Assembly: GCA_016931035.1 (NCBI GenBank)
Contig: JAFGFN010000026.1
Location: 21,235-85,234 of the forward strand
Direction of reading: 5' to 3'
Source of the DNA: Candidatus Sumerlaeota bacterium
GTDB lineage: Bacteria > Sumerlaeota > Sumerlaeia > UBA8349
DNA: 64,000 bases
Shown: piece by piece, positions 23,853 through 61,717 of the stretch
How the letters are laid out: each line of letters begins with the position of its first letter
Numbering within the stretch: position 1 is the first letter of the stretch
The notes under the pieces: generated by a model
What the model saw: the letters and a program-made list of their open reading frames with translations, nothing else
What the model was told of the DNA's origin: nothing
Database searches by the model: none
Made by a program: the position numbers and the translations under genes

Positions 23853-23895
23853 CGACGAGAGACTGAGGGTTTCCTGAAACGAGGTTCTCTTGTGT

Positions 23896-24045
23896 GGAGT
23901 GCGGAACCTTGGTTCCGCTTTCATCGGCGGGAGCTTGCTCCCGACGAACCGGGAGATCGGAGAGTCTATAGTCGACGGCGCAAGCAAGATTGCGCCGCAA
24001 AAAGCGGAGCCCAGTCCGCCTCAGGCGGACAAGGTTCCGCACTCC
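23896..24045. repeat. 16-bp perfect inverted repeat (ggagtgcggaaccttg / caaggttccgcactcc) enclosing 118 bp with nested hairpins. MITE-like element or structured leader RNA.
   Basis: Left arm 23896-23911, right arm 24030-24045. Internal hairpins: gggagcttgctccc, ggcgcaa-gcaaga-ttgcgcc, gtccgcc-tca-ggcggac. Confidence 0.5.
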
Positions 24046-24058
24046 AAAACGGAGAAGA

Positions 24059-24700
24059 ATGCCCGACACGCCGCCCACAACGCTTTTCATCGTCCGTCAC
24101 GGCGAGACCGCCTGGAACGTCGAGCAGCGTCTCCAGGGGCAGTTGGACAGTCCTCTGACCGACCTGGGTCGGCGACAGGCCGAAGCGGTCGCCGAGCGAT
24201 TGGCCGAGGAGAACCTGGACGTTCTCTATAGCAGCGACCTTGGTCGCGCGATGGAAACCGCTCGCGTCATTGCCGACCGCTGCGGCGGTCCGGAGATCGT
24301 TCCGGACGCAGGATTAAGGGAGCGCAACTTCGGCATCTTCAACGGACTGAATTTCGCCGAGGCGCGCGAGCGAGACCCCGAGGCGTACTCGCACTGGATG
24401 GAATACGACTACGTAGTCCCCGGCGGCGAAAGCCCTCGCCAGAAGGCCGAGCGCGGGATCGCGGCGGTCGAAACCGTCGCGCGGCGTCATCCGGGAAGGA
24501 AGATCGGCATCGTGACGCACGGTGGCATTCTGACGAGTCTTCTGCGCCGCGTGATGCACGTCGAGGCCGAGGCGCCGCACGGGTTCCTGACGTACAACGG
24601 CGCGGTCAACGTCTTTCTGATGGAGAACGGCGCGCTGAAACTCTCGACCTGGGGCGACATCCGCCATCTCCGCCGCATCGGGACGAAGGACGATTTCTAG
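24059..24700 (+). CDS. Histidine phosphatase family protein (phosphoglycerate mutase-like)
   Basis: Catalytic RHGET motif at the N-terminus ([12 protein letters not shown]). Confidence 0.8.
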
Positions 24701-33650: not shown

Positions 33651-34814
33651 TCAGCGCCGCGCGGCGGCGCGTCGGAGGATGTCCTTCAGGGCCTCGATTC
33701 TCGAAGGCCAGCGAAACTCGGTCGAGGCGTGTTCGCGCCCTTCCGCGCCCATCCTCCGAGCCGACTCGGGGTCGCGCAAGAGACGGAGAATCGCCCGGGC
33801 CACGCACTCCGGATCGCGTCCGTCGACTCGGAGTCCCGTTTGGCCGTCGAGAATCGATTGGCTCGTCCCGCCCGCGTTGCCTCCGACGACGGGCAGACCG
33901 TGCGCCGACGCCTCGGCAAACGCGATCCCGAACCCTTCGGTGTCGCCGGTGCGCTCGATATCGAAGTTGGGCAGAACGTAGCAGTCGCTCTCGGCAAACG
34001 CTCGCAGAAGGCTCTCGCCGTCCACGCGGCCCTCGAGCCGCACGACCTCGCCGAGACCGAGTTGGGCGGCCTGTTTCGCCAAATCCGCCGCCAAAGGCCC
34101 GGTGCCGACAATGCGGTAGCGCAGACTCGGGAATTCCTTGAGAACCGTCGGGAGCGCTTCGAGAACGGTCGCGTGGCCCTTGCGCTCGACGAGCCGTCCC
34201 ACGCTCAGGAGTCGCGGTCCGCGAGCGGGGTCGCTCAAGGGGCACGCGGCATACCGCGGATCGAAATGTTCGTCCGCGACGGCGGGAAGGAGCACCTCGA
34301 TTCTGTCCGCCGGCGCACGGAGAAGATCCGTCAAGCCCGACCGGGCGTTCTCCGACGCGGCGACGACAACCCGCGCCCGGCAACAAACCCGGCGCGCGAG
34401 ACGAGACTGAATTCGCGTGCGCGAGATCGTCGACGGCTCCTCGGCGTGGGTGAACGCGACGAGCGGCTTGCCCAGCATCGCCGCGACAATCGCGACGGGC
34501 GGCCCCGTCGGCACCAACTCTCCCGTCAGTATGACGTCGGGACGGAACCGCCGGGCCGCTCGAAACGTCTGGAGAAGAAGGTTCGCTCCGAGCGGAACGA
34601 ATTGGAGTCTCAGCGGCCGGAGCCACTCGGCGCGTTCGATCCGGCAGCGCCGGATCTTGTAGGGTTGAGCGGAGTCGAACTCGCGCCAACCCGGGATGCG
34701 GCGGGTCAGGACGAGCGTCTCGAAGCCGTCGAGGCGGCTCAAGAGGTTGTGGTAGTAAACGCGCGACCCGCCGAGGTGAGGAAGATAGTTGTCGGTGACG
34801 AGAAGAATTCGCAT
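33651..34814 (-). CDS. Glycosyltransferase family 4
   Basis: Starts MRILLVTDNY and has the GT4 EX7E region (TEGFGIAFAEASAHGLPVVGG). ATG at 34814. Confidence 0.8.
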   Translation of the reverse strand: MRILLVTDNYLPHLGGSRVYYHNLLSRLDGFETLVLTRRIPGWREFDSAQPYKIRRCRIERAEWLRPLRLQFVPLGANLLLQTFRAARRFRPDVILTGELVPTGPPVAIVAAMLGKPLVAFTHAEEPSTISRTRIQSRLARRVCCRARVVVAASENARSGLTDLLRAPADRIEVLLPAVADEHFDPRYAACPLSDPARGPRLLSVGRLVERKGHATVLEALPTVLKEFPSLRYRIVGTGPLAADLAKQAAQLGLGEVVRLEGRVDGESLLRAFAESDCYVLPNFDIERTGDTEGFGIAFAEASAHGLPVVGGNAGGTSQSILDGQTGLRVDGRDPECVARAILRLLRDPESARRMGAEGREHASTEFRWPSRIEALKDILRRAAARR

Positions 34815-35016
34815 GAGGGCGAAAAACGACCGGCGAGAGAGATCGCGCATCCGGGGAGATCGAGCCCCGCCTCGGGTTCGACCGACATCATAGGTCCATT
34901 CCTCGCGTCCCGTCAAACGGCATATCCACACGGCTCTCCTGGGAATCTTGGGGAAGAACCCGGACACGCGCGCTCGAAAAGGGAGGAGGCTCCTTCTCCG
35001 CGGGGATTTCTTGGGC

Positions 35017-35112
35017 TGTCGTTGACTCCGGCCAACTGAAGTTGGAACAACAAACGAAGAATCGGAATCGGTCAGGCCCGTCTGTTTGTCGTTCCAGCTT
35101 CAGCTGGCCAAC
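35017..35112. repeat. 96-bp palindromic repeat element, copy A (REP/MITE-like)
   Basis: Begins tgtcgttgactccggccaactgaagttggaacaacaaacgaaga, has a central loop, and its right arm is the near reverse complement of the left. The first 44 nt are identical to copy B apart from 2 SNPs. Confidence 0.8.
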
Positions 35113-35787
35113 GGCTCCCTCGTTCCCCGGAAATCCCCAAAGGCCCCCCCACGCTTCCGGAGGGTGAGCGGCGCAGAACGGGCGGCATGTTCCGTTCGCC
35201 TTCCTCTGTGCACGCCAAAGGCGTGCCAGCCTCCGGCCTGGGGTTGGCGCGGCGCGGCCGAGCGCAGCGAAGCCGCGCAACGCGGCTACCCCAGGAACAC
35301 GCGACCCCATTTTCGTTCTTCAACCCGGAACGGGTTGTGGCCTATTGGCCCATTGCGCCACAACCCCGTTGGGGTTGTCTGAATTGGGACGTACGTGACC
35401 CAAGGTAGCGCCTGCCCGGCTCCGCTCCGCTTCGCCGTGCCGGGCGGCGCAACCTTGGGCTGTAGGCTGCGGCCCCGTTGGGGCCGAAAAGAAGAACGGG
35501 CCGAAGAAGTCCAATCCGACGCGTTGTATGGACGTTGTCGTTTGTGCAGCACAGACCGACCCCGAGAGTCCGCAGACTTCGCCGCTTCCCCCATCCCCGT
35601 CGTACACGCACTTCCGGAACCGCAGGAGAATCGGGTTGTGTCGCGCACTCGGGCGGTGATACGATCTCTGCCAGTGTCCAGAGACCCTTCTTCTTCCCGT
35701 CTTTCCGGACACAGACCGCTCGTTCGGACGGACCGAGCGCGCGCATCGCGACGGCCGTCGGACCGACACATCTAGAGAGAAGAAACG

Positions 35788-36927
35788 ATGAAAGTACCCC
35801 TGCTGGATCTGAAAGCGCAGCTGGCGCCGATCGAACGCGAGATCAAGGAGGCCGTCCTCGAGGTCGTGGATTCGACCCGCTACATCATGGGGCCTAAGGT
35901 CGAGGAGTTGGAAACGCGGATCGCCGAGTACGTCGGCGCGGCCCGGGCCGTCGGCGTCTCGTCGGGCACCGACGCCCTCCTAGTCTCCCTGATGGCGCTC
36001 GGCGTCGGCTCGGGCGACATTGTGGTGACGACGCCCTATTCGTTTTTCGCCACGGCGGGCGTCGTTGCGCGTCTCGGCGCGACCGCCGCGTTCGTGGATA
36101 TCGATCCCGACACTTACAACATCTCCCCCGCCGCGCTCGAAGAATGGTTCGAACGCGAGACAACCCGCGTCGGCCAAGTCAAGGCCATCGTTCCGGTGCA
36201 TCTCTACGGCCAGTGCGCCGACATGGACCCGATTCTCGAAATCGCGCGACGCTACGGCGTCCCGGTGGTCGAGGATGCGGCCCAGGCCATCGGGGCGACC
36301 TATCCGTCGAAGTCGGGCGTCAAGAAAGCCGGCGCGATGGGAACCGTCGGGTGCTTCTCGTTCTTCCCGAGCAAGAACCTCGGTTGCCTCGGGGACGGCG
36401 GCATGGTAGCGACCGACGACGCGGCCCTCGCCGACAAGATCGTCCTTCTGCGAAACCACGGGGCCCAACCGAAGTACTACCATTCGCTCGTCGGCGGGAA
36501 TTTCCGGCTCGACGCGATACAGGCCGCCGTCCTTCTGGTCAAGTTGCCGCATCTCGATACCTGGCACGCCGGACGCCGCGCCAACGCCGCGTACTACGAC
36601 CGGCATCTGAACGTTCCCGGCCTCAAGAAGCCCCACGTCGCCTACGGACCCGACTCGCACATCTATAATCAGTACGTCCTGGCGGTCCCCGACGACCGTC
36701 GCGACGCCCTTCGCAAACACCTCGACGCGAACGCCGTCGGCAACGAGGTCTACTATCCCGTCCCGTTCCACGAACAGCAATGCTTCGCCCACCTGGGCTA
36801 CAAGACGGGCGATTTCCCGCACAGCGAGCGCGCGGCGCGCCGCACCATCGCCCTGCCGATCTACGCCGAACTGACCGATGGGATGAAGGATTACGTTATC
36901 GAGAAGATCGAGGCATTCTATGAGTAA
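35788..36927 (+). CDS. DegT/DnrJ/EryC1/StrS family PLP-dependent sugar aminotransferase
   Basis: Starts MKVPLLDL. Contains the PLP-lysine region [10 protein letters not shown]. Confidence 0.85.
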
Positions 36928-38548
36928 GAAAGTCTGCGTCGTCGGGGCCGGACGCTGGGGACGCAACCACATCCAGACGTTGCACACGATGGACTGCCTC
37001 GGGGGCATCGTCGAGGCGAACGACGAGACCCTCGCGCGTCTCGCCCAGTCCTACCCCGAGGCCAAGACCTTCCCGAACGTCCGCGACGCCGTGCGCGAGG
37101 AGTTCGACGGATTCACCGTCGCCACGCCCGCCGCGACGCATTTCGAGATCGCGTCGTTCCTTCTGCGCGACAAGAAACACGTCCTGGTCGAGAAGCCGAT
37201 CGCGCTAAAAGCGTCGGAGGCGAGAGAACTCGACGCCCTGGCCCGGCGGCAGGGCGTCCAGCTGATGGTCGGCCACGTTCTCCTCTTCCATCCCGCCATC
37301 GCCAAGATCAAGGAACTCGTCGACGCCGGCAAGATCGGCAAACTCGAGTATCTTTACAGCAATCGCCTCAACCTCGGCGCGGTGCGAACGGAAGAGAACA
37401 TCCTCTGGAGTTTCGCCCCGCACGACATCTCGATCTTCCAACACCTCATCGGGGCGATGCCGACGCAGGTGACCTCGCGCGGCGGAGCCTTTCTCCAGCC
37501 CCACATCCACGACACCACGATGACGGTCCTCTCCTACCCCGACAACGTGGTCGGACACATCTTCGTCAGCTGGCTCCACCCGTTCAAGGAACACCGCCTC
37601 GTCGCCATCGGTTCCAAAGGGATGCTCTCGTTCGACGATTCGAGCGAGAGTAAGGATCTTCTCTTTCACGAAAAGGGGATCGACTGGGTCCAAGGCGAAC
37701 CGGTCAAGCGCGACGGCGCGACCGAGGCGATCCCCTACGACCGGACTCTCCCTCTGACCAACGAGCTGACCTACTTCGTGGACTGCCTGGGCGGCAACCC
37801 CGTCGAACTCGCGGACGGACGCAGCGCCGTCGAGGTCCTCGAAATCCTCGAACAAGCCACCGTGAGTCTCCTCGCCGGGTCGCCCGTCGCGCCTCAACCT
37901 TCGAAGGACTACTTCGTTCACAAGAGCGCCTACGTGGACGAAGGCGCCGAGGTGGGCGCGGGAACGAAGATCTGGCATTTCTCTCACGTCATGAAGGGCG
38001 CCCGGATCGGCGAGCGCTGCATTCTCGGCCAGAACTGCAACGTGGACGGGGGCGCGCTCATCGGCAACAACGTCAAGGTCCAAAACAACGTGTCGATCTA
38101 CGCCGGGGCCGTCATCGAAGACGATGTCTTCCTCGGACCGTCGTGCGTTCTGACCAACGTCACGAACCCGCGCTCCCAAGTCGTACGGCATTCGCTCTAC
38201 GAGAAGACGACGATCCGGCGCGGCGCGTCGATCGGGGCGAACGCCACCATCGTTTGCGGCGTGGAGATCGGACGCTACGCCTTCATCGCCGCCGGCGCCG
38301 TCGTTGCGAAGAACGTCCCCGACTATGCGTTGATGGTCGGGGTCCCGGCGCGGCAAACGGGATGGATGAGCCGCCACGGGCTGCCGCTCCAGAATCCCGA
38401 CGCCGAAGGCGTGATGACCTGTCCCGAGAGCGGGTATCGCTACAAAGAAGCGGTCCCGGGCGTCCTGCGATGTCTCGATCTGGACGAAGAAGCTCCTCTG
38501 CCCGAGGACTTGGCGATAGGGAAACGCCCCTACGACAGTTTCAAGTAG
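36920..38548 (+). CDS. Bifunctional Gfo/Idh/MocA-type sugar-nucleotide dehydrogenase / hexapeptide-repeat N-acetyltransferase fusion
   Basis: Residues 1-330 carry the Rossmann motif [11 protein letters not shown] and an oxidoreductase C-terminal domain. Residues 340-542 carry left-handed beta-helix hexapeptide repeats ([49 protein letters not shown]). Confidence 0.8.
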
Positions 38549-38615: not shown

Positions 38616-40511
38616 ATGGCGAGGAATTCGCGACACAGGAAGGAGACGGAGCTCGATTCCCGACTCGGGAATCGGGTCGAGTCGAGACATTTCGCCCACA
38701 TTTGGTGGCTCCTGATTCTTCTCGGAGTCTTCGTCCAAGTCTCCGACGTTCTTTCGAGCAATTACCTCCCCAAAACAGTGTGGAGCGCCGTCTTTCTCGC
38801 CCTTGCGTTTCTGTTCACGCGGCGCGGATCGGATCGCCCGTTCGGTCTCACCCCGCTGGGCGCGATCTGGCTCGCTTTCGGGCTCTGGGGACTCGCTTCG
38901 GCAATCTGGGCGCCCAGTCCCCGCGTGACGGTCGAGCGATGGATCGCCCTGTTCTTCTTCCCCTCGATGGCCTATCTCGTCGCGCAACGCACTCGTTTCT
39001 GGGAATCGGAAACGTTCTGGACGGCCTATTGCGTTCTCTTCTCGGTCGTCTGCCTTATCGGATGTCTGCAGTTCATCCTCCCGATCGAGTGTCTCAAGCC
39101 GTGGTTCCCGAAGCAGGACTTCCTTGGGTGGATCGAGAGCACCGGTCTCCCCTCTTCGACACTCGGCAACCGAAACTACGCGGGCGAATACCTCGCCGCG
39201 ACGTTTCCTCTCGTCCTGTGGCGTTTCCTCAAGGCCGACGGCCGGGCGATGGTTGTCCCGTTCGTCGCGCTTGGGCTCGGCGCGGCGTTCCTTCTCTTCA
39301 CCCGGACGCGAAGCGCGTGGCTGGCCCTCGCCCTCGCCTTCGCGCTGATCGCCGCCTTCGGAGGCGCGCGGAGAGCGCTTCGCCGCAAACGCAGTCTCCC
39401 GATCCTGGTCGCGACGGCGTGCGTGGTTCTCGCGGCGGGCCTCGTCGTGCGCCCCTCGTCGCGCGTCAAGACGCAGGGTCGCGGCGACGGCTACGGCGGG
39501 ATGCCGGTCTATAAGGACACCCTTCTCCAGTCCTTCCGGTCCACCCTTTCCGATCTCAAAACGAACAAACGCCTGGCGATGTGGCGGCTCGCCTTGAGCG
39601 TCGGGACGAACCCTCTCCTCGGCTGTGGATGGGGAAACTACCCGATCGTCGCGACGCCGTACAACCCCGAAGACAAGATCTTCACGCTCAATTACGAGAT
39701 TCACAGCGACGTTCTTCAGTGCTACGTCGATCTGGGGGTCGTCGGACTCGGAATCGTCCTGGCCTTCGCCGTCCATCTCGCAACCCTCGTCTACAGGCAA
39801 CGCCAAGACGAAAGCCTGATTCTCGCGTCGGGCGCCGCCGTCTTTGCGCTCACGCTCATGCTGTCCGTCACGTTCCTTTCGGAAAAGGTATCGACCCAGA
39901 TTTGGACTGCGGGTATAATCGCCGTCATCAACGACCGGAACGCCCGCCATCCCTGGAAGCGGTTCGACCTGAACCGTTGGGCGCGGGGCGCTCTCCGTTT
40001 CACGGCAGTGGTCGGACTCGCCGCGCTTGCGGTCGCCGCGGGCATGACGGTATGGGGCGATTTCCAGTTCTGGAAGGAGACCGTACGAAACCCTCGGATC
40101 GGCCTGAGTCCGGACTACGACCGTTTGGCGCGTGACGTGCTACCCTGGATGCAGTTCGAGCCGAACGTGATTCACATTCTGACAAACCAGACGTCGAGCA
40201 CGGCGCTTCGCGCGGGGCGTCTCGACGCCACCGAGACGTTCGCCCGCAAAGCCGTGTCGCTTCACTCCAACGATGCCGTCGCGTTGGGCAATCTGGTCGC
40301 CGTCGCGCTCAAGAGGTCGGATTTGGAAACGGCGGCGCGATACCTCGAAGAAATCGTGCGCCTGGGACCGCGATTCGCGACCTTCGACGTTTGGAGGATG
40401 CTGGCGAACTGCTACGCCCGCCTAGGCAAGGAAGACCGGGCGAAGGAATGTCTCGACAAGGCGCTTTCGCTCTTGGCGAGGGACCGCCCCGCCGCGGGGC
40501 GGGCGCCATAA
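38616..40511 (+). CDS. O-antigen ligase (Wzy_C/WaaL) family membrane protein with C-terminal TPR repeats
   Basis: Wzy_C hallmarks (SAWLALALAF and LLGCGWGNY). The roughly 150-aa C-terminus is TPR-like. Confidence 0.65.
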   Translation: MARNSRHRKETELDSRLGNRVESRHFAHIWWLLILLGVFVQVSDVLSSNYLPKTVWSAVFLALAFLFTRRGSDRPFGLTPLGAIWLAFGLWGLASAIWAPSPRVTVERWIALFFFPSMAYLVAQRTRFWESETFWTAYCVLFSVVCLIGCLQFILPIECLKPWFPKQDFLGWIESTGLPSSTLGNRNYAGEYLAATFPLVLWRFLKADGRAMVVPFVALGLGAAFLLFTRTRSAWLALALAFALIAAFGGARRALRRKRSLPILVATACVVLAAGLVVRPSSRVKTQGRGDGYGGMPVYKDTLLQSFRSTLSDLKTNKRLAMWRLALSVGTNPLLGCGWGNYPIVATPYNPEDKIFTLNYEIHSDVLQCYVDLGVVGLGIVLAFAVHLATLVYRQRQDESLILASGAAVFALTLMLSVTFLSEKVSTQIWTAGIIAVINDRNARHPWKRFDLNRWARGALRFTAVVGLAALAVAAGMTVWGDFQFWKETVRNPRIGLSPDYDRLARDVLPWMQFEPNVIHILTNQTSSTALRAGRLDATETFARKAVSLHSNDAVALGNLVAVALKRSDLETAARYLEEIVRLGPRFATFDVWRMLANCYARLGKEDRAKECLDKALSLLARDRPAAGRAP

Positions 40512-40750: not shown

Positions 40751-42712
40751 TTGCGACTCATGATTCGCGCTTTCGACATCGCTTTCTCCCTCGTCGCGCT
40801 CGTGCTGCTCGCTCCGCTTGCGCTCTTGATCGCCTTATTGATCAAGATCGATTCGAGCGGCCCCGTCCTCTTTCTCCAAAAACGCGTCGGGCGCGGCGGC
40901 GTTCCGTTCACGATGTTCAAGTTCCGCAAGATGCGCGAGGGGCTCGCCAACCAAGGGCCCGCCGTCACGTCGCGCTACGACAGCCGCCTCACCGTCGTCG
41001 GACGCTGGCTCGAACGAACGAAGCTCGACGAGCTCCCCCAACTCCTCAACGTCCTCAAGGGCGACATGGCCGTCGTTGGCCCTCGACCCGAACTCGAGGA
41101 GTTCACGCGCTTCTATCCCGAGAAATGGAAGGACGTCCTTTCCGTCCGGCCCGGCTTGATCGGCCCCAGCCAGGTCCTCCATCGCAACGAGTCCGAGCTC
41201 TATCCGCCCGACTGTCGCGACCGCGAGGATTTCTACGTCCGCCGTATCCTGCCCGACAAACTCGATTGCGACATCCGGTACATCGAGAACGCTTCGCTTC
41301 TCTACAACCTCACCATCCTGATGCGAGCGCTCTTTCGCACGCTAATCGGGACGATCACACGCGATTCGACGATCTCGACGGCCCGGAGCCTCTATCTGCT
41401 CGTCTCCTATACGCTAGTCTCCATCCTGAGTCTCTACGCCGCCTACCGGCTCCGGTATCCGGACGCCATGCCGGTGACCGACGCGCGGATCTTCAGACTC
41501 AGCTTCCCCATTCCGATCGTTGTGTATCCGCTCGTGTTCCTGTCGCTGCGCGTCCATCGCCGCATGTTCGGGAGCCTGACGCTCGAAGACGTGACGGCGT
41601 TCTTCAAGAGCTGCGTCGTCGGGTCGTTCCTGATGATCCTGGTCCTTCTGATCCTCGACGCCCGGGAGTTCTCGAGACTGGTCTACAGCATCGACTTCGT
41701 TTTCCGTTTTCTCGGCCTGACGCTCCTGGCCTACGTCGAGTATCAATACACTCAAAAACGCAAGCTCCTGACCGGCCGCGACATCGTCCGAGCGGTCGTC
41801 TTCGAGGCGGTCGCCGTCGCCTTTTTGGTCCTGTGCTCGATTCTTCTCATCGCCTTCGCCGTCCCTCGCCCGTCCGAAGCCGCCGCCGACTTCGCGCGAA
41901 CGATCTGGGCCGTCGCCGCGCTCGCCGTCGCCGCGCCGCTCATCTACATGGCGACCTTCCAGGAAGTCCCAAGACGACTCGTCTACTATCTCAAGGTCAA
42001 GATGAAGCAAACCGCCATCATGCTCGCCCAAGGCGCGTTGTTCCTCGTGGTCGTCTCGCTCCTCCTCGACGTGCGCGACTACTCGCGCCCCGCCGTCCTC
42101 CTCTCGATCGTCGTCCTGACCGCGTCGCTCATGGCGTTCTTCGTTCTCACTTGGTGGTTGCGCTGGCGCTCGCTTCCCGAGGTCCGGCGCGACCGCGTGC
42201 TCCTGATCGGTCTCGCGCCCGACCTCGACCTGTTCATCACCGCGCTGCAACGCAGCCACGTCGACTACTCGATCGTCGGCATCATCAGCGACGAGACACG
42301 GGATCGGTTCTATACCGTCTCGAAGATCGAGATTCTGGGGACGCTCAACGAGCTCGAAGACGTCCTCAACGTATACCGCGTGGATACGTTCGTCGTCTCG
42401 TCCGAACGCCTCGGCCCCCACGAGATGGCCTGGGTGCGGCAAATCGCCCGCGCGCACAACGTCGCGGTCCGATACATCACCGGGGTCGATCGGTTCATGC
42501 GGCTGGATGCGGAGCGAGAGGAATCCGCACTGGAACGGTCGGCAGTGGAAGAAATCGCGAAGCCTTCACTCCCCGTCACCCCTCCCGCGGAAAAAGCGGA
42601 AGCGGCAAACGGCGAAAGGAAACGGAAGCGTTCATCTCGTTCGCGCCGCGCCGCCGCGTCTCGACCGAAGGAACCGCCACGCGCCGCAGAGACTTCCGAA
42701 TCCGTAGGATAG
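40751..42712 (+). CDS. Polyprenyl-phosphate sugar phosphotransferase (Bac_transf/WbaP catalytic domain) with permuted domain order
   Basis: The N-terminal 200 aa form the complete sugar-transferase catalytic domain (KRVGRGGVPFTMFKFRKM ... DELPQLLNVLKGDMAVVGPRPE). They are followed by a multi-TM segment, a Rossmann-like CoA_binding_3-like region (VLLIGLAPD...VDTFVV) and a basic low-complexity tail. Confidence 0.75.
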   Translation: MRLMIRAFDIAFSLVALVLLAPLALLIALLIKIDSSGPVLFLQKRVGRGGVPFTMFKFRKMREGLANQGPAVTSRYDSRLTVVGRWLERTKLDELPQLLNVLKGDMAVVGPRPELEEFTRFYPEKWKDVLSVRPGLIGPSQVLHRNESELYPPDCRDREDFYVRRILPDKLDCDIRYIENASLLYNLTILMRALFRTLIGTITRDSTISTARSLYLLVSYTLVSILSLYAAYRLRYPDAMPVTDARIFRLSFPIPIVVYPLVFLSLRVHRRMFGSLTLEDVTAFFKSCVVGSFLMILVLLILDAREFSRLVYSIDFVFRFLGLTLLAYVEYQYTQKRKLLTGRDIVRAVVFEAVAVAFLVLCSILLIAFAVPRPSEAAADFARTIWAVAALAVAAPLIYMATFQEVPRRLVYYLKVKMKQTAIMLAQGALFLVVVSLLLDVRDYSRPAVLLSIVVLTASLMAFFVLTWWLRWRSLPEVRRDRVLLIGLAPDLDLFITALQRSHVDYSIVGIISDETRDRFYTVSKIEILGTLNELEDVLNVYRVDTFVVSSERLGPHEMAWVRQIARAHNVAVRYITGVDRFMRLDAEREESALERSAVEEIAKPSLPVTPPAEKAEAANGERKRKRSSRSRRAAASRPKEPPRAAETSESVG

Positions 42713-43790: not shown

Positions 43791-44915
43791 GTGACGAAAG
43801 TGAAGATTCTCACCGTCGTCGGCGCGCGGCCCCAATTCATCAAGGCCGCCATGGTGAGCCGCGCCGTCGCCCGACACAACGCCGCCGCCCTCCCCACGGC
43901 CCCACCCGTAGTCGAGGAAATCGTCCACACGGGTCAGCACTACGATCACGGAATGAGCCAGGCCTTCTTCGACGAGATGGAGATCCCCGGTCCCGCCGTC
44001 AATCTCGGCGTCGGGTCGGGCACCCACGGCGAGACAACCGCCGCCATGCTCCGCGGCCTCGAGGCCGAGATCGTCGCGCGCCGTCCCGACTGGGTCCTCG
44101 TCTACGGCGACACGAATTCGACTCTCGCCGGCGCGCTGGCCGCCGCGAAACTCCACGTCCCCGTCGCGCACGTCGAGGCCGGGCTGCGTTCCTTCAACAA
44201 ACGAATGCCCGAGGAGATCAACCGTCTCGTCGCCGACCACGTCTCGACCCTTCTCTTCTGCCCCACCCGCGCGGCGGTCGAGAACCTCGCGAGCGAGGGG
44301 ATCGCCGACGGAGTTCACGCGGTGGGCGACGTGATGTACGACGCCGCGCTCGCCTTCGGAGACCTCGCCCGCCAACACAGCGACGTTCTCGATCGCCTCG
44401 GTCTCGCGCCGAAGGGCTACGCCCTCGCCACCTGTCACCGCGCCGAAAACACCGATAGCGGCGAACGCCTCGCCGCCATTCTCGACGGCCTGGGCCGCGT
44501 CGCCGAGTCCGTGCCGGTCGTTTTGCCGCTCCACCCTCGCACGCGCGAGCGGATCGAACGATTCGGGTTCGCGAAACGCGCCGAGCGTCTCCGCACCGTC
44601 GAGCCCGTCTCGTTTCTCGACATGATCCGGCTCGAGCAGGAGGCGCGCGCGATCCTCACGGACTCCGGCGGCGTTCAGAAGGAGGCCTACTTCCACGGCG
44701 TGCCGTGCGTCACGTTGCGCGACGAGACCGAATGGGTCGAGACTGTCGAGGCCGGATGGAACACCCTGGCGGGCGCCGACGCCGACGCGATCGCCCAGGC
44801 CGCGCGCGACGCCTCCCCCGGCCGCCCGATCGCCGACTACGGCGACGGCCACGCGGCGGACAAGATCCTCTCAATCCTTCTCTGCCCTTCCTCAAACCCC
44901 GAGGAAGAAACCTGA
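43791..44915 (+). CDS. wecB: UDP-N-acetylglucosamine 2-epimerase (non-hydrolysing)
   Basis: Contains the WecB motifs (VGARPQFIKAA and HVEAGLRS). GTG start at 43791 or 43800. Confidence 0.85.
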   Translation: MTKVKILTVVGARPQFIKAAMVSRAVARHNAAALPTAPPVVEEIVHTGQHYDHGMSQAFFDEMEIPGPAVNLGVGSGTHGETTAAMLRGLEAEIVARRPDWVLVYGDTNSTLAGALAAAKLHVPVAHVEAGLRSFNKRMPEEINRLVADHVSTLLFCPTRAAVENLASEGIADGVHAVGDVMYDAALAFGDLARQHSDVLDRLGLAPKGYALATCHRAENTDSGERLAAILDGLGRVAESVPVVLPLHPRTRERIERFGFAKRAERLRTVEPVSFLDMIRLEQEARAILTDSGGVQKEAYFHGVPCVTLRDETEWVETVEAGWNTLAGADADAIAQAARDASPGRPIADYGDGHAADKILSILLCPSSNPEEET

Positions 44916-44966
44916 GGCTTTTCCTGAATGCGGAGAATACCTCTTGCCGACGCCGATCTCTCGAGT

Positions 44967-45062
44967 TGTCGTTGACTCTGGCCAACTGAAGTTGGAACAA
45001 CAAACAAAGAACCCACACGGGCTACGCTTGTCCGTTTGTTGTCCCAACTTCAGTTGGCCAAC
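44967..45062. repeat. 96-bp palindromic repeat element, copy B
   Basis: Same 5' 44 nt as copy A (2 SNPs). Right arm ccgtttgttgtcccaacttcagttggcc is the near-perfect reverse complement of the left arm. Same orientation as copy A. Confidence 0.8.
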
Positions 45063-45101
45063 ACATCCGTCATTCCCGAGAATCCCGGAAGTGTCTTCAT
45101 C

Positions 45102-47012
45102 TCAAACGAACGGTCTACGGTTGTCGAGGAACTGGCGGCAGAAGCTGTTGAGGCAGAGGAAACCCCAGATCTTGCGGCCGAAACTCGGCTCGCTCGGAAG
45201 ACCCCGCCGGATCGCGTCGAAATCGAGAAACTCCCGCGCCGCCTGCGAGGGTTCGCCGAACGCCTTCTCGACGAACTCCTTGAGCGCGTCGCCGTACCAT
45301 TGCACCAGCGGGACCGGGAATCCCATCTTGTCCTTGCGCCCGAGGACGCTCGCGGGCAGGGTGTCGCCGAAGAAGAGTTTGGGCAGACGCTTGAGCTCGC
45401 CCCCCCTGAACTTCACGTTCGCCGGGATCGTCGCCACGAACTCGACCAGCGGATGGTCGAGGAACGGGGTGCGCGACTCGACGCCGTGCGCCATGCTCGT
45501 CCGGTCCTCCACTTGGAGCAGCGCGGGCAGGAGCGTGAGGAAGTCGAAGTGGAGCATGCTGTCGAAGTAGCATCGGCTCCCGATCTCGTTGGAGAAATAC
45601 ACGCGGCGAAACTCTTCGTACACGTCGTAGTCGCGCGGGAAAGCGTCCCACCGCACTTCGTCGCGCACCTCGGCGCTGCGGTCGATCAGGCGGAAGTAAC
45701 GGCGGTCGTAGTCGTCGAACATCCCGGCGCTGAAGAAGTGGCGCATCAGAGGCTCGTATCCGGCGAGCGACTGGAGATTCGGGATGATCGACTCATAGGT
45801 GACGATGAAACGCGGCGAATGGCTCTCGCCCGCCACCGCGCCTTTGAGGCACTGCTCGAAGTAAGCGATCAGGTATCGAACGTACCCGCCGAAGATTTCG
45901 TCCGCGCCCTGTCCCCCTAGGACGACCTTGCGTTTCCCTTTCACGTACTTCGAGACGACGTACTGAGGGAACGAGCCGGGCCCGGCGACCGGGAAGTCCA
46001 TGTGATAGATCAGGCGGTCGAACGCATCGACGAAGTCGTCGCTCGACACCGGGATCTCGCGCAGGTCGATCCCTTCGCGTCGCGCGACGTCGCGCGCGAA
46101 CCCGCTTTCGTCGAACCGTTCGCCGTATCCGCGAAAGACGCCGTGGAACGCCATGAAATCGTCGGCGCCCGTCGCGCGTCGGGCCAGGGCGGCGATGCCG
46201 CTCGAATCGATGCCGCCGCTCAGATAGCCGCTCACGGGAACGTCGCTCACGACGTGCGCGCGGATCGAGTCCTCCATGAGCTCGCGGCATCGCTCGACGA
46301 ACCACGCCTCGCCGTGCTCCATGTCGAGGTCGTACCGTACCTTCCAGTAGGTGTGTGACCGCGTCCCCTCGGAATCGACCGTCCGCCACGTAGCGGGCGC
46401 GACCTCCTCGATGTTCTCGAACAGGGTCTTGCCGCGCAGGCAGAACTGGAAGGTCAGATAATCGCGCAGTCCCGAGCGGTCGATCCGCACGTCGGGAAGG
46501 AACGAAAAGAGCGCCTTGATCTCGGAGGCGAAATAGAGCGTCTCGCCCGACCAGGCGACGTACAACGGCTTGATCCCGAAACGATCGCGCGCGAGGAAGA
46601 GCCGTCGGCGGCGGGCGTCCCAGATCGCGAAGGCGAACATCCCGCGCAGGTACTCGGGACAGGCCTCGCCCCACTCCATATAGGCCTTGAGGATCACCTC
46701 GGTGTCGGACTGCGTCCGAAAGCGGTGCTTGGATTCGAGGCGGGCGCGCAGCTCGCGAAAGTTGTAGATCTCGCCGTTGAAGACGATAGTGAGGTCGGCC
46801 TCGTCTTCGCGCATCGGTTGGCGCGCGCGTTCCGAGAGATCGAGAACGCTGAGCCGAACGTGGCCCATCCCGAGGGCGGCGTCGGGCGCGAGCCAGAGAC
46901 CTTCGTCGTCGGGTCCGCGGTGCTTCTGCAGGGCGTTCATCCGCTCGAGGCGTTCGCCCAGCCGGTCGATCGCCCCGCCTGACGGATTGAAGATTCCCGC
47001 GATCCCGCACAT
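45102..47012 (-). CDS. asnB: Asparagine synthetase B-type glutamine amidotransferase
   Basis: N-terminal MCGIAG nucleophile and the PP-loop SGGIDSS. Confidence 0.85.
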   Translation of the reverse strand: MCGIAGIFNPSGGAIDRLGERLERMNALQKHRGPDDEGLWLAPDAALGMGHVRLSVLDLSERARQPMREDEADLTIVFNGEIYNFRELRARLESKHRFRTQSDTEVILKAYMEWGEACPEYLRGMFAFAIWDARRRRLFLARDRFGIKPLYVAWSGETLYFASEIKALFSFLPDVRIDRSGLRDYLTFQFCLRGKTLFENIEEVAPATWRTVDSEGTRSHTYWKVRYDLDMEHGEAWFVERCRELMEDSIRAHVVSDVPVSGYLSGGIDSSGIAALARRATGADDFMAFHGVFRGYGERFDESGFARDVARREGIDLREIPVSSDDFVDAFDRLIYHMDFPVAGPGSFPQYVVSKYVKGKRKVVLGGQGADEIFGGYVRYLIAYFEQCLKGAVAGESHSPRFIVTYESIIPNLQSLAGYEPLMRHFFSAGMFDDYDRRYFRLIDRSAEVRDEVRWDAFPRDYDVYEEFRRVYFSNEIGSRCYFDSMLHFDFLTLLPALLQVEDRTSMAHGVESRTPFLDHPLVEFVATIPANVKFRGGELKRLPKLFFGDTLPASVLGRKDKMGFPVPLVQWYGDALKEFVEKAFGEPSQAAREFLDFDAIRRGLPSEPSFGRKIWGFLCLNSFCRQFLDNRRPFV

Positions 47013-49193: not shown

Positions 49194-51047
49194 ATGAACG
49201 ATTCGGCCATCCGCCTCAAAGAGCTCGGGAAGATGTACAAACTCTTCCGCCATCCGGCGGACAGGGTGTTCGACGCGTTCGGTCTCCGCCGCCGTCCGTT
49301 CGGACCCAAACTCGTCTTCCAGGAGTTCTGGGCGCTGCGCGGCATCGACCTGCGCGTGACCAAGGGGGAGAGAATCGGCATCATCGGCCAGAACGGCGCG
49401 GGCAAAAGCACCCTGCTCAAGATCGTCACCGGCGTCGCTGCGCCGACCGAAGGGAGCGTCGAGGTCTCGGGACAGATTCAGGCCTTGCTCGAACTCGGGA
49501 CCGGTTTCCACCCGGAATTCACGGGACGCGAGAACATCCGGGCGTCGTTGTCGCTCAACGAATTCTCCTCGTCCGAGATCCGCGAGATGGAGGAGGATAT
49601 CGTCGACTTCGCGGAACTCGGCGATTTCATCGACCACCCTCTCAAGACCTATTCGGCGGGGATGGCGGCCCGATTGGCTTTCTCGACCGCCTCGGCCATT
49701 CGGCCCGAAATCCTCATCATCGACGAGGTCCTGGGCGCGGGCGACGCCTACTTCGCGGGCAAATGCGTCGAACGGATGAAGCAACTCACCCACGAATCGG
49801 GCGCGACGGTCCTCTTCGTCAGCCACGACCTGAACAGCGTCCAGGCCCTGTGCGAGCGCGTCCTCTGGATTCATCGCGGCCAGGTGCATCGCGACGGCGC
49901 GCCGCTCGATACGATCCAGGACTACATGGCGATGGTGCGGCGCGACGAGGAAACGCGGCTCCGCGCGCGCGACCTGAGAGTCCTGAAGAAACAGGCCCTC
50001 TTCCTCGAACGGGACGAGGACGTTTACGAAAAGACCTTGTTCCACTTTGTTTGTCCCGGATCGCCTCCCCCGCCGCCGGGACAGCGCATCTACGGCCTGA
50101 CCCTCTCGGTCGACGAGCAGGAGGCCGCCCGAATCGCGGTCGGGAGCCCGATGGACAATTCGGCCGATCACATGAATTACCTCATGGACACTCCCGGCTA
50201 CATGGACTGGGGACCCGCCGCCAAGGATCGCAACAGTCGGCCCTATCGCGAGTACGGCGACTACAAGGGGCGCTACGGCCACGCCCCCTTCGAGTTCGCC
50301 GTGCCGCGCACTCTGTTGCGCGAGGGCGAGACGCAACGCCTTCAACTCGACATCGAAGCCTCCGTCACTCATGAGGGCATCGCCGTCGAGGCGTACAACG
50401 GCGAGGCCTATGTCCCGATCGGCCCCGTCGCTACGGGCGAAGGCGTGGCGACGCGCCTCGAGTTTTCGAGCGCCCTTCTCCGACCCGGAAAGCAAGCGCT
50501 CGGCGCCGCCGCGCCGTCCGGAGAAACCGCTCTTCTGTCCGCCGCCGAACGTCCGGCCGAGCACGCGCCTCAACAACCCGTCCGCCACGAATACGGCGCG
50601 GGAGGGGCGAAGATTCTCCAGGTGCGAATGCTCAACGCCCAGGGCGAGGACACGCGCGTCTTTCATCCCGACGAACCGATGCGGGTCGAGATCGAATTCC
50701 AAGCCGAGGCCGAGCTGGCCGATCCCGTCTTCGTGTTCTGCGCCTATCTGCCCGACGGCCGGTGCGCCACCCAGTGGATCGTCGATTCGCGGACAATGGG
50801 CTCGCCCCGCGTGCCGCCGGGCAAGGGGCGCGCGACGTTTCGGATCGACCGGCTTGTCTTGGGCAAGTCCGCCTACGTCGCCAGCGCGGCGATCTTCAAG
50901 TTCCTGCGTCCCGACGGGCGGGAACCCGAAAGCTATCACGTCCTCGACCGATGCATCCATTTCCAAGTGGTACAAGGCGTAGAACACGTTTACGAGAAAG
51001 GGTTGTGCGTGCAACCCTTCGAGGCGGAGATCGATCTTGGACGCTGA
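49194..51047 (+). CDS. wzt: Polysaccharide ABC exporter ATP-binding protein with a C-terminal carbohydrate-binding extension
   Basis: Nucleotide-binding domain (GQNGAGKST, LSGG-like, DEVLGAGD) in residues 1-250. About 180-aa unique linker. C-terminal 150-aa Wzt_C-like beta-sandwich (KILQVRMLNAQGE...). Confidence 0.85.
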   Translation: MNDSAIRLKELGKMYKLFRHPADRVFDAFGLRRRPFGPKLVFQEFWALRGIDLRVTKGERIGIIGQNGAGKSTLLKIVTGVAAPTEGSVEVSGQIQALLELGTGFHPEFTGRENIRASLSLNEFSSSEIREMEEDIVDFAELGDFIDHPLKTYSAGMAARLAFSTASAIRPEILIIDEVLGAGDAYFAGKCVERMKQLTHESGATVLFVSHDLNSVQALCERVLWIHRGQVHRDGAPLDTIQDYMAMVRRDEETRLRARDLRVLKKQALFLERDEDVYEKTLFHFVCPGSPPPPPGQRIYGLTLSVDEQEAARIAVGSPMDNSADHMNYLMDTPGYMDWGPAAKDRNSRPYREYGDYKGRYGHAPFEFAVPRTLLREGETQRLQLDIEASVTHEGIAVEAYNGEAYVPIGPVATGEGVATRLEFSSALLRPGKQALGAAAPSGETALLSAAERPAEHAPQQPVRHEYGAGGAKILQVRMLNAQGEDTRVFHPDEPMRVEIEFQAEAELADPVFVFCAYLPDGRCATQWIVDSRTMGSPRVPPGKGRATFRIDRLVLGKSAYVASAAIFKFLRPDGREPESYHVLDRCIHFQVVQGVEHVYEKGLCVQPFEAEIDLGR

Positions 51048-59320: not shown

Positions 59321-60258
59321 CGCGTCGAGTCCTCCTCCGGGCGAGAAGCGGGAGGGCGTCTTCGCGCCAGCTGGCCCAACTCGAGCCGCACCTGGGCGAT
59401 CTGCTCGGCCAAGAGACCGAAGAAGAAGACGAACACGCCCGACAAGATGAGCGCGAGAGACGAGCCAAACACACCTCCCCTAAGAACGATCTGAATCACG
59501 CCCCAGACGCTCCCGACGACGAGCAGGAAAAGCCCCGTGGGCGTGAAGATGCGTTGCGGATTGAAGAGCATTGTCAAACGCAGCAGAATGTGAAGGAAGC
59601 GGAGTCCGTCGCGCAGCGGACGAATCCCGCTGCGCCCCGTGCGGCGGCGTCCGATCGTCTTCAGAGACACGTATCGCACTTCGCGTCCCAGCTTGAGAAA
59701 CGCCATCGTCACCGTCGTCGGATAGGAGTAGTGCCGGGGGAAAAGATGAACGACTTCCAGGAGCGGCTCGCGCCGGACCGCGCGGAATCCCGAAGTGAGG
59801 TCCGCGATCTTCTCCTGCGATAGGAATTCCGCGAATCGGATCAGTCCGCGATTGCCGAACGAACGCAGACGCGAGACGTTCGCTCCGGGCGCGCGAGCCC
59901 CGACCACAAGGTCGCACTCGCCGCAGTGCTCGAGGAGGGCGGGAATCTCTTCGGCCGGGTGCTGCCCGTCGGCGTCGAGCATCACGATCCATTCGCCCCG
60001 TGCCGCCTCGCACCCGGTGCGGACGGCGGCCCCGTTGCCTCGGTTCTTCGAATGCCGCACCACGCGCGCGCCCGCTTCGCGCGCCGCGTCCGCCGTGCCG
60101 TCGGTCGAACCGTCGTCCACGACGACAATCTCGTTCGCTATGTTCAGCGCCGCGATGCGGCGGACGACTTCGCCCACGCTTTCCGCCTCGTTGAAGGCGG
60201 GGATCACCACGCTCACGTCCGGCCGGGTCGCACTCGTCGGGTCGAGACTCGTCATCAT
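59317..60258 (-). CDS. Polyprenyl-phosphate glycosyltransferase (GT2, GtrB/ArnC/DPM1-like)
   Basis: VSVVIPAFNE, DDGSTDGT and DADGQH motifs plus two C-terminal TM helices. Confidence 0.8.
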   Translation of the reverse strand: MMTSLDPTSATRPDVSVVIPAFNEAESVGEVVRRIAALNIANEIVVVDDGSTDGTADAAREAGARVVRHSKNRGNGAAVRTGCEAARGEWIVMLDADGQHPAEEIPALLEHCGECDLVVGARAPGANVSRLRSFGNRGLIRFAEFLSQEKIADLTSGFRAVRREPLLEVVHLFPRHYSYPTTVTMAFLKLGREVRYVSLKTIGRRRTGRSGIRPLRDGLRFLHILLRLTMLFNPQRIFTPTGLFLLVVGSVWGVIQIVLRGGVFGSSLALILSGVFVFFFGLLAEQIAQVRLELGQLARRRPPASRPEEDSTR

Positions 60259-61700: not shown

Positions 61701-61717
61701 GACGGAGATCTGCCCTT

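Follow-up and report, generated by a model that had tools for sequence, protein, structure and literature searches.

What occupies the long gap between two divergent sets of sugar-chain genes in an uncultured bacterium of the Sumerlaeota, a candidate phylum whose genomes have nearly all been assembled from metagenomes? The gap lies within the 64-kb stretch of DNA analysed here (hereafter the window) and spans 973 bp (34815..35787). It is bounded on the left by a GT4 glycosyltransferase gene on the minus strand (33651-34814; Pfam Glycos_transf_1, E 7e-33) and on the right by a DegT aminotransferase gene on the plus strand (35788-36927; E 1e-115). The first-pass annotation had considered a gap of about 1 kb anomalous, and it is, since all other spacers in the window measure ~240 bp or less, which makes this one at least four times longer. 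As we read it, the spacer is real but fairly ordinary, its middle being made up of two large hairpin-forming repeat elements of the REP, REPIN or MITE kind.

The gap is truly non-coding. Codon-position GC across the spacer is flat, at 0.55-0.72 in all three phases and free of periodicity, while the flanking genes have a GC3 of ~0.80-0.84 and a GC2 of 0.41-0.51. The spacer does contain 13 ORFs of at least 40 aa, reaching 161 aa and lying on both strands; all 13 have a GC3 of 0.51-0.71 and a GC2 of 0.57-0.70, and their Arg content is 9-19%, with one exception at 4%. A Pfam search with nine ORFs of the spacer, admitting E values up to 1, returned nothing better than E 0.1. We also looked by tblastn for a pseudogene remnant, using the UDP-glucose dehydrogenase and the GT4 that flank DegT in the related locus L002, and found none in the spacer. 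A coding or pseudogene identity is rejected on codon-position GC together with the Pfam and tblastn negatives, in agreement with the earlier remark that no plausible ORF exists here. The length of the ORFs on both strands and the origin of the sequence from a metagenome-assembled genome could be taken to favour a hidden protein-coding gene, a small ORF, a recent pseudogene or palindromes created by assembly. We consider this extremely improbable: no ORF has coding-type codon-position GC or a Pfam match, and no trace is left of the UDP-glucose dehydrogenase gene that precedes DegT in L002. Besides, palindromes produced by amplification or assembly chimeras consist of near-identical copies, unlike the arms of the palindrome described below, which are only ~66% identical.

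The outer parts of the spacer (34815-35000 and 35500-35787) lack structure and have the appearance of normal promoter and 5'UTR sequence. On the GT4 side, a candidate sigma-70-like promoter (TTGACG-18-TATGAT, 34887..34916, minus strand), assigned by consensus match only with 10 of 12 positions matching, is found ~70 nt upstream of the start codon; this is the one sigma-70-like site observed, against 0.1 expected in shuffles. On the DegT side, the proximal upstream region (35501..35787, plus strand), the presumed promoter and 5'UTR, shows no excess structure, with fold z-scores of +1.55 and +0.05 for its two 150-nt halves. A weak DegT promoter candidate, TTGTGT-18-(TG)n-TACGAT at 35636-35665, was picked out by eye and falls below the scan threshold. 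Since the GT4 promoter is proximal and the 300 bp next to DegT carry no excess structure, the hairpin block probably lies between the two promoters and not within a leader.

That the spacer is dense in hairpins is readily confirmed. The hairpins listed in the first-pass annotation are all present at the coordinates given there and belong to the densest such region of the window; likewise, the motif CCCCGTTGGGG, described as occurring twice, is found at 35364-35374 and 35473-35483. When perfect hairpins (stem of at least 7 bp, loop of 3-5 nt) are counted in 973-bp windows, the mean is 3.8 (sd 2.0) and the maximum of the entire 64 kb is 13, reached in the windows that start at 35101 and 35201. 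Within 34815-35787 proper there are nine, against 4.0 expected by length, and the segment 35200-35490 holds five distinct ones against ~0.2 expected from the window-wide density. Folding of the whole spacer gave z-scores of -4.4 on the plus and -5.8 on the minus strand relative to dinucleotide shuffles. The hairpin excess is based on direct enumeration and on targeted folds; sliding-window fold z-scores were too noisy, with 12 shuffles only and window edges that cut hairpins. The hairpins are not independent of each other: they resolve into two composite palindromic elements, which we call A and P, within the central 500 bp. It had been missed earlier that the separate hairpins are parts of one large palindrome and that excess structure is confined to ~35000-35490, as the targeted folds reveal. 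Between A and P there is also a weaker hairpin, H0 (35159..35204), with a 13-bp stem that includes G·U pairs (z -2.2 on the plus strand for H0 and H1 together).

Element P is an imperfect palindrome of ~314 bp, centred on position 35349, with approximate boundaries at ~35187..35500. Alignment of its left half with the reverse complement of its right half gave 83 identical columns out of 125 (z 7.2; none of 500 shuffles was as good), so the arms are ~66% identical, and the symmetry extends outward to the hairpins H1 and H5. All five GC-rich hairpins (H1-H5), among them those listed in the first-pass annotation, belong to this single element. H1 (GCACGCC-aaa-GGCGTGC, 35210..35226) and H5 (CGGCCCC-gtt-GGGGCCG, 35470..35486), found by enumeration, are mirror partners by symmetry, and four of their seven stem pairs differ on both sides with pairing kept. 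Further inward, the 59-nt hairpin H2 (35237..35295, minus strand) and the 61-nt hairpin H4 (35399..35459, plus strand) are inverted paralogs; they are similar in the inverted orientation only (Smith-Waterman z 4.5, p < 0.002), and the hairpin previously reported there is the perfect stem at 35271-35287 within H2. Their consensus fold yielded a covariance model, R1, that scores both at 87-91 bits, and a search with R1 of the 64-kb window and of contigs L002, L008, L009 and L010 found no further copies of H2 or H4. H4 (plus strand) and H2 (minus strand) each have GGTAGC at the foot, with the G and T of the tag inside the outer stem, and H2 read on its own strand has GCGAAGC near the apex. The centre of the palindrome is H3 (35321..35378), whose 10-bp stem joins 35332-35341 with 35357-35366 and is flanked by two mutually mirrored triloop hairpins (35321-35337 and 35360-35378). 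Near the ends of P there is a 9-bp direct repeat, AGAACGGGC, no more than chance would produce.

The divergence between the arms of P has left their structure intact. All 26 stem pairs are paired in both arms, eight of them by a compensatory double change, and none is broken; slid-partner controls gave 0-1 such compensatory pairs. Stems are 90% Watson-Crick, and G·U pairs within the spacer number 10 versus 8 between the two strands. This lack of strand preference is as expected for a palindrome at the DNA level.

Element A (34982..35140) is a long REPIN-like hairpin repeat located next to P. Its arms, 35030-35055 and 35084-35109, are 26 nt long and 88% complementary, with a 28-nt loop (35056-35083) between them and an outer stem that pairs 35002-35015 with 35125-35138. 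The result is a hairpin of ~150 nt in which inverted copies of a 27-nt motif surround a non-conserved 28-nt spacer, with a predicted fold of -66.5 kcal/mol (z -6.0) on the plus and -70.9 (z -6.5) on the minus strand. The first-pass annotation was right to call it one copy of a repeat: 35017-35061 matches 44967-45011 at 95.6% identity (E 4e-15), and at 74% identity it can be followed over 151 nt. The second copy, element B (44932..45090), is recognised by this sequence match and by its own inverted arms (44979-45005 and 45034-45060, 96% complementary), which enclose a loop unrelated to that of A. Element B lies between two convergent genes, a UDP-GlcNAc 2-epimerase (43791-44915, plus strand) and an asparagine synthase (45102-47012, minus strand), and has eight G·U-compatible pairs on the minus strand versus one on the plus strand. 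An apparent compensatory change between the outer stems of A and B was not relied on, as it may reflect a register shift caused by a 1-nt indel. Inspection of the flanks of A and B revealed no convincing direct repeat that would represent a target-site duplication.

Which class of element do these features recall? In REPINs, REP doublets are inverted around a less conserved spacer and form an almost perfect hairpin (PMC3337134), and RAYT transposases mobilise both REPINs and REP units (Bertels and Rainey; PMC3337134, PMC3116915). The elements described here are alike in several respects: the unit is a short imperfect palindrome (the 27-29-nt motif in A and B; H2 and H4, 59-61 nt, in P); two units are inverted, with the arms of A and B 88-96% complementary and their loops unrelated between copies; the spacer varies in sequence but remains paired; the complete element folds into a near-perfect hairpin of ~90-230 nt; location is extragenic, with A and P in the GT4/DegT spacer and B in the epimerase/AsnB spacer; and different element types are clustered side by side. 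They differ from REPINs in that the 64 kb hold only two copies of A/B, a single P locus and no RAYT gene, in that A and B lack a GTAG tag and the P units measure 59-61 nt and not 20-40, and in that the host is an uncultured Sumerlaeota lineage and not a proteobacterium. REPs are mostly found downstream of genes and typically between convergent ones (PMC3733652), which is where copy B lies.

GTAG-tagged REP families and BIME clusters have been described (Nunvar et al. 2010, PMC2817692; Ton-Hoang et al. 2012, PMC3333891; Di Nocera et al. 2013, PMC3733652). [quoted passage not shown] Unlike in REPs, where the tag (GTAG or CGTC) is unpaired, the GTAG is partly inside the stem of H2 and H4; both hairpins are also longer than the 20-40-bp palindromes, and the site is between divergent genes.

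Long intergenic palindromes are also characteristic of ERIC, Correia and other MITE-like elements. A and B share with these an imperfect palindrome of ~130-150 bp, an intergenic position and a presence in more than one copy, and copy B is potentially co-transcribed with its neighbour genes. The differences are that there is no sequence similarity and that neither a target-site duplication nor a parent insertion sequence was found.

On balance, we think it slightly more probable than not that extragenic palindromic repeats of the REP/REPIN/MITE type are clustered in the middle of the spacer. A divergent promoter region of the ordinary kind, taking up ~185 bp next to GT4 and ~290 bp next to DegT, would have been expanded by ~500 bp of extragenic palindromic repeat DNA between the promoters. 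A and B have the build of REPINs, each consisting of two inverted 27-nt imperfect palindromes around a non-conserved 28-nt spacer that together form one long hairpin. P is a larger doublet of the same design, with two inverted arms of ~150 nt flanking the central hairpin, each arm containing a triloop hairpin of 7 bp as well as a 60-nt hairpin whose foot bears GGTAGC. In favour of a repeat cluster are the recurrence of A in a second spacer, with nearly identical arms and an unrelated loop, the core motif common to all these arms, the structure-preserving divergence and lack of strand preference of P, the confinement of excess structure, the far shorter and dissimilar spacer of the orthologous operon in L002-L006, and the failure to find an Rfam family, a terminator or a coding signal. 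The anatomy, repetition, symmetry and structure-preserving divergence of these elements are demonstrated here; we infer that A/B and P may be non-autonomous mobile or duplicative DNA. Most likely, a transposase whose gene lies in another part of the genome, Y1/HUH-type (RAYT-like) or other, would recognise and maintain their hairpins in single-stranded DNA, and the elements may persist because the site lies between two promoters and disrupts neither. Any effect on expression of the glycan operons would be secondary, possibly by cruciform extrusion under negative supercoiling between the divergent promoters or, for copy B, by stabilisation of the 3' end of a transcript.

Several observations count against a repeat cluster. 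A REP or REPIN family usually numbers tens to hundreds of copies in a genome, and the 64 kb contain just two copies of A/B and one of P. The P sub-hairpins, at 59-61 nt, exceed the classical 20-40 bp of REPs. A Pfam search of the ~45 proteins of the window found no transposase or RAYT domain, no insertion sequence was found in the 64 kb, and no target-site duplication could be defined. A and P lie between divergent genes, a less usual position for REPs (PMC3733652). Finally, the compensatory changes are equally compatible with selection on RNA structure.

The spread of the repeat motif was examined more widely. A 27-nt core, GGCCARCTGAAGYTGGRACRACRAAC, is common to all four arms in the window and to two single units on a metagenome contig, L008; taken alone, the 27-29-nt motif (GTTGGCCAACTGAAGTTGGAACAAC) folds into a small hairpin, imperfectly palindromic, in which an internal loop interrupts 5+5 bp of stem. 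Exact-pattern scans of ~186,000 species-representative genomes and of JGI metagenomes found the motif on this one other contig only, which also counts against a large repeat family. L008 is an unrelated contig from another uncultured bacterium, whose DnaX fragment is at most 58% identical to its best full-length homolog (one partial match reaches 65% over 75% of the query). Here the motif is located upstream of dnaX in units of ~95 nt, each followed by T-runs. Folds of these units are not significant (z -0.8 to -1.2), and L008 had no match in Rfam. A match of the repeat arm to a Kofleriaceae genome was dismissed as chance, the same chance sequence recurring in metagenome contigs, as were three hits to viral contigs. 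The arm had no blastn match in plasmids, and no occurrence of the motif string was found in the literature.

Is the hairpin block rather transcribed, acting as RNA? One possibility is a long structured leader or attenuator for the DegT operon; another is one or two sRNAs that regulate the flanking glycan operons, with the P arms as paralogous sRNA genes read outward or inward from the centre. Folding far stronger than in shuffles speaks for this, as do the eight compensatory pairs with none broken between the P arms, which are a classical signature of selected structure, the 8 versus 1 G·U-compatible pairs of copy B, and the sRNA-like appearance of the L008 units with their T-runs. The Rfam/Infernal search that the first-pass annotation had proposed was run over the whole 64-kb window and gave no match at the gathering score. 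A permissive search of the spacer returned nothing but spurious microRNA-like matches to the long hairpin. The best of these sub-threshold matches, and the only one with E < 1, was the microRNA precursor mir-971 (25.9 bits against a threshold of 53), which we rejected. ARAGORN found no tRNA or tmRNA. No U-tract follows any of A or H0-H5 on either strand, the sequence after H1, H3 and H5 being A/G-rich or mixed on both strands, and the scan for intrinsic terminators returned two weak sites versus 1.3 expected, neither of them at any of these hairpins. The spacer lacks the G·U strand asymmetry that copy B has, and the folds of the L008 units fall short of significance. Since the P arms are mirror images, a single transcript would hold the sense and antisense forms of the same hairpins. 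The block is also set back from both genes, with the GT4 promoter proximal and 290 bp free of excess structure next to DegT, and the orthologous operon in L002-L006 has no comparable leader. We consequently regard an RNA role as rather unlikely. The structured ncRNA and the long leader or attenuator suggested by the first-pass annotation gained no positive support from Rfam, terminators, G·U bias or the unstructured 300 bp proximal to DegT.

A leader of the JUMPStart type deserves mention here: like the ops-RfaH and NusG-paralog leaders, the spacer is long, does not code for protein and precedes a surface-glycan operon. It differs from them in that the exact ops core GGCGGTAG is absent from the entire 64-kb window, that no NusG paralog was found among the window proteins and that ~290 bp of unstructured DNA separate the structured block from DegT. 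A single-mismatch ops match, GGCTGTAG, does occur in the spacer (35458-35465), and there are 68 such matches window-wide. Other candidates fared no better. The spacer has no match to an integron attC (RYYYAAC ... GTTRRRY); a replication origin was rejected on one DnaA box with a single mismatch (34922-34930), against 2.6 expected in the window, and cumulative GC skew is monotonic; and tandem repeats were rejected as an account of the spacer.

The position of the block suggests another role, that of a locus-specific host module of cis-regulatory or architectural DNA. Cruciforms or protein sites, by absorbing or sensing negative supercoiling or by binding a regulatory or nucleoid protein, would link the expression of both glycan operons. 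According to the twin-domain model, negative supercoiling accumulates between divergently transcribed operons, and the block is situated exactly between two of these. Its stems are near-perfect Watson-Crick on both strands and their structure has been kept despite ~34% divergence between the P arms. Moreover, host-protein binding has been reported for REP/BIME elements (PMC2817692). Yet copy B lies between convergent genes, where the supercoiling logic fails. H1 and H5, as well as H2 and H4, differ in stem sequence, which excludes one sequence-specific dimeric regulator for these pairs. With no regulator gene adjacent to the spacer and no conservation in the orthologous operon of L002, we find such a module distinctly doubtful.

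Comparison with related operons bears on a further explanation. The nearest DegT homolog is 76% identical, and loci L002-L006 keep the operon DegT, GFO/LbH fusion, Wzy_C and Bac_transf; their spacer upstream of DegT is only 272 bp long and has no similarity to the 973-bp region. The nearest CarB homologs are 74-77% identical, and the CarB relatives L009 and L010 have neither the glycan cluster nor the motif. Since the upstream neighbour of the DegT operon here differs from that in L002-L006, the site is a gene-order breakpoint, and the block could be a functionless relic: a scar that a local rearrangement or inverted duplication left where two horizontally assembled glycan modules meet. Template switching within quasi-palindromes, a known mutational mechanism, would then have kept the stems, and neither selection nor mobility would be involved. 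It agrees with this that P was found only once and that its arms have diverged to ~66% identity. On the other hand, a second copy of element A lies 10 kb away and a different organism also carries its core motif, which points to spread or constraint and not to a one-off scar, and 0 broken pairs out of 26 is extreme for drift. We therefore hold a relic to be very unlikely. The mobile-element option of the first-pass annotation, a decayed landing pad, comes closest to the repeat cluster that we favour, with repeat elements present and A recurring 10 kb away; the word "decayed" does not fit, since stem pairing is fully kept through compensatory changes.

A selected role for part of the block has little probability in our estimation. 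P, possibly with A, would then be a regulatory module of both divergent surface-glycan operons and not selfish DNA, either as a mirror-image pair of structured RNAs or as a supercoiling-responsive cruciform switch whose hairpins are kept by compensatory evolution, and the 27-nt motif, found here and upstream of dnaX in L008, would be the signature of a hitherto undescribed element, RNA or DNA, of this lineage.

If the repeat-cluster reading holds, the locus would offer a first glimpse of REPIN/MITE-like palindromic repeats in Sumerlaeota and would account for a puzzling 1-kb gap in a glycan gene cluster. The elements open no new mechanism and do not resolve an outstanding question. For annotators, the lesson is not to predict Arg-rich hypothetical ORFs in blocks of this kind, which can also cause assemblies to break. 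The eight compensatory pairs, with none broken, between the arms of P provide a clean small example of hairpin maintenance.

The 973-bp region at 34815–35787 lies within a large surface-glycan gene cluster, in a window whose G+C content is ~63–64% and which belongs to a metagenome-assembled Candidatus Sumerlaeota genome. Its left-hand neighbours on the minus strand are a GT4 glycosyltransferase gene (33651–34814) and two genes for membrane proteins without a Pfam family. To its right, a plus-strand operon encodes a DegT aminotransferase (35788–36927), a GFO/IDH/MocA oxidoreductase fused to a hexapeptide acyltransferase (36920–38548), a Wzy_C protein (38616–40511) and a Bac_transf sugar transferase (40751–42712). 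Since GT4 and the DegT operon are on opposite strands, the region is a divergent intergenic spacer. The fusion directly after DegT is a 542-aa protein that joins a sugar oxidoreductase to a left-handed beta-helix acyltransferase. The first-pass annotation had described the region as non-coding, hairpin-dense and anomalously long, and this was borne out in every respect. In a crude GC3-based gene map, the holes of which were filled, every other spacer of the window measures at most about 240 bp. Codon-phase GC is flat across the region, while the adjacent genes display a GC3 of about 0.80–0.84 and a GC2 of 0.41–0.51. None of the 13 region ORFs of at least 40 aa has a coding-type phase (Arg 9–19%, with one exception at 4%), and Pfam searches with nine region ORFs of this size returned nothing better than E 0.1. 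It is very unlikely that the spacer is coding sequence or an artefact; an assembly artefact was rejected on the excessive divergence between the arms of the palindrome P (about 35187–35500).

A sigma-70-like promoter on the minus strand (TTGACG-18-TATGAT, 34916–34887) is a good match to the consensus ~70 nt from the GT4 start, and one site of this quality was found with 0.1 expected. The right flank offers only a weak promoter candidate, read by eye, at 35636–35665. The spacer also contains the only near-consensus DnaA box of the window (ATATCCACA, 34922–34930); with 2.6 such boxes expected and no GC-skew switch, a replication origin was rejected. An RfaH-type ops/JUMPStart leader was likewise rejected, exact GGCGGTAG being absent from the window, and an integron attC site, tandem repeats and plasmid similarity were tested and dropped.

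All hairpins listed in the first-pass annotation were found where it had placed them, and their clustering is far above chance: when perfect hairpins with a stem of at least 7 bp and a loop of 3–5 nt are counted, five distinct stems fall within 291 bp, compared to about 0.2 expected. Per 973-bp window, perfect hairpins reach their 64-kb maximum of 13 at starts 35101 and 35201, overlapping the cluster (mean 3.8, sd 2.0), and between 34815 and 35787 themselves there are 9, where a stretch of this length would be expected to contain 4.0. Compared with dinucleotide shuffles, the fold of the whole region is better by 4.4 to 5.8 standard deviations. Targeted folds limited the excess structure to about 35000–35490; no excess was seen at 35487–35636 (z +1.6) and 35638–35787 (z 0.05), while 34851–35000 shows none on the plus strand (z 0.1) and a modest one on the minus strand (z -2.1). 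The structured part is made up of two composite palindromes, rather than many separate hairpins.

The first of these, element P, is centred at 35349. The similarity between hairpins H2 (35237–35295) and H4 (35399–35459) is significant (Smith-Waterman z 4.5, 0/500 shuffles) and limited to the inverted orientation, and the sequence left of 35349 matches the reverse complement of the right side in 83 of 125 columns (z 7.2). The symmetry reaches outward, H1 (35210–35226) being the mirror of H5 (35470–35486), and fades at roughly 35187 and 35500; H3 forms the palindrome centre, flanked by two small triloop hairpins that are mirror images of one another. All five GC-rich hairpins are therefore parts of a single palindrome. 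Its arms are only ~66% identical and nevertheless keep their internal hairpins intact: once the arms are aligned with each other, they share 26 stem pairs, with pairing in 100% of cells. Both bases have changed between the arms in 8 of these pairs without loss of pairing and a single base in one (C-G to U-G), and no pair is disrupted. When the 3' partners were slid by 1–3 columns, 0–1 both-side changes kept pairing and 35–41% of cells were paired. This retention of pairing across diverged arms is striking; the comparison involves two sequences from which the structure itself was derived and is not a formal covariation test. GGTAGC occurs at the foot, and GCGAAGC close to the apex, of both H2 (read on the minus strand) and H4 (plus strand). 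Run against the window and the comparison contigs L002, L008, L009 and L010, a covariance model of H2/H4 gave no further copy.

The second palindrome, element A (34982–35140), recurs as element B at 44932–45090, between convergent UDP-GlcNAc 2-epimerase and asparagine synthase genes, with 74% identity over 151 nt ungapped and a 45-nt core at 95.6% (E 4e-15). Each copy is a long hairpin with 26–27-nt arms that are 88–96% complementary, a 28-nt loop and additional pairing outside (fold z-scores -6.0 to -8.0); the arms of A and B are almost identical, while their loops are unrelated. An exact-pattern scan of about 186,000 species-representative genomes with the arm gave no true match and one chance match without a hairpin. 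In JGI metagenomes the same type of scan gave one true relative, contig L008 (Ga0124853_1161337, 2.1 kb, 62% G+C), which has two single motif copies in direct orientation, 274 nt apart. The core GGCCARCTGAAGYTGGRACRACRAAC is common to all six half-elements of A, B and L008, and the isolated motif folds as a small imperfect palindrome. Both L008 copies are located in a 730-bp divergent non-coding spacer (467–1194) between a TIR-domain ORF and dnaX, within two direct ~95-nt units (about 650–745 and 924–1020, some 90% identical) that start with the 27-nt A/B motif and are each followed by T-runs. These units look sRNA-like; they do not fold significantly, and a search of Rfam gave no match. The dnaX frame of this short contig is broken by a 1-nt frameshift within the Walker A motif (GPRG|GKT, about 1370–1377), probably a sequencing or assembly error.

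Of the 172 pairs in all stems of the region, 154 are Watson-Crick, and the remainder, of which 10 read G·U on the plus and 8 on the minus strand, favours neither strand. U-tracts follow none of the block's hairpins on either strand, no Rfam family matches, and, because of the mirror symmetry, any one transcript would contain each type of hairpin in both sense and antisense form. Together, these features favour a DNA-level element over an RNA function of the hairpin block, which is less likely, even though in copy B the G·U pairs are more numerous on the minus strand (8 vs 1).

Identity to the nearest homologs is 76% for DegT and 74–77% for CarB, and no genome in the collections is close enough for intergenic alignment. 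The five metagenome contigs with the 76% DegT (L002–L006) keep the same operon, that is DegT, the fused oxidoreductase/acyltransferase (9130–10704 in L002), Wzy_C and Bac_transf. Upstream of DegT, a divergent UDP-glucose dehydrogenase gene follows after only 272 bp that lack sequence similarity to the region, and the region holds no remnant of that gene. This DegT operon type can thus do with a short upstream spacer of unrelated sequence, which fits the central 500 bp being an addition instead of a required leader. The short L002 spacer has, at 7760–7800 and 7905–7945, a triple GGCGGGCGC tandem repeat and a hairpin GCCGTTG...TTGGCCAA...CAACGGC; the hairpin shares TTGGCCAA and GCCAACGGC with element A, matches of 8–9 nt that are not significant.

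REP units and REPINs are short imperfect palindromes, single or arranged as inverted doublets around a non-conserved spacer, the doublet forming a near-perfect hairpin (PMC3337134). The same design is seen in A/B as inverted doublets and in L008 as single units, and GGTAGC at the foot of H2/H4 recalls the GTAG-tagged REPs (PMC3733652), although classical REPs are shorter than these hairpins. The design features that can be tested are present; the likeness is one of design only and no family membership is claimed, which would turn above all on copy number across the genome and on a cognate RAYT. The window encodes no transposase, RAYT or NusG paralog. On balance, the spacer is explained most economically as an ordinary divergent promoter region into which two extragenic palindromic repeat elements, of the REP/REPIN/MITE kind, have come. 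The hairpins of A and P would be what is maintained, most plausibly through a transposase or host factor recognising folded single-stranded DNA; stems could also stay perfect in the absence of selection, by template switching within quasi-palindromes. An architectural or supercoiling role specific to this locus appears improbable, and a functionless rearrangement scar a shade more so. A/B and P are most likely new representatives of a known bacterial repeat kind, from a phylum that has been poorly sampled.

In the Sumerlaeia-related contig L010, the convergent FecR-like and fumarase genes have between them an unrelated, nested long hairpin of ~144 nt (2513–2656), and long intergenic palindromes may be common in the lineage. 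Within the window, the start of a histidine-phosphatase gene (23990–24700) between carA and carB is bracketed by a 27-nt inverted repeat (23885–23911 / 24030–24056, 85% complementary); the fold z of the 120 nt at 23881–24000 is about -4 on both strands, as estimated from only 12 shuffles. A 1307-aa ORF (51037–54960), an N-terminal methyltransferase fused to a C-terminal GT4 glycosyltransferase, contains tandem 105-nt (35-aa) repeats at 52661–52975 and a diverged copy at 53186–53290. Finally, the glycan cluster has two AsnB-type amidotransferase (asparagine-synthase) paralogs (45102–47012 and 61718–63658), the second beside a B12-binding radical-SAM protein (within 60255–62468), a methyltransferase and GT2 enzymes, which suggests sugars that are amidated or modified in other unusual ways.
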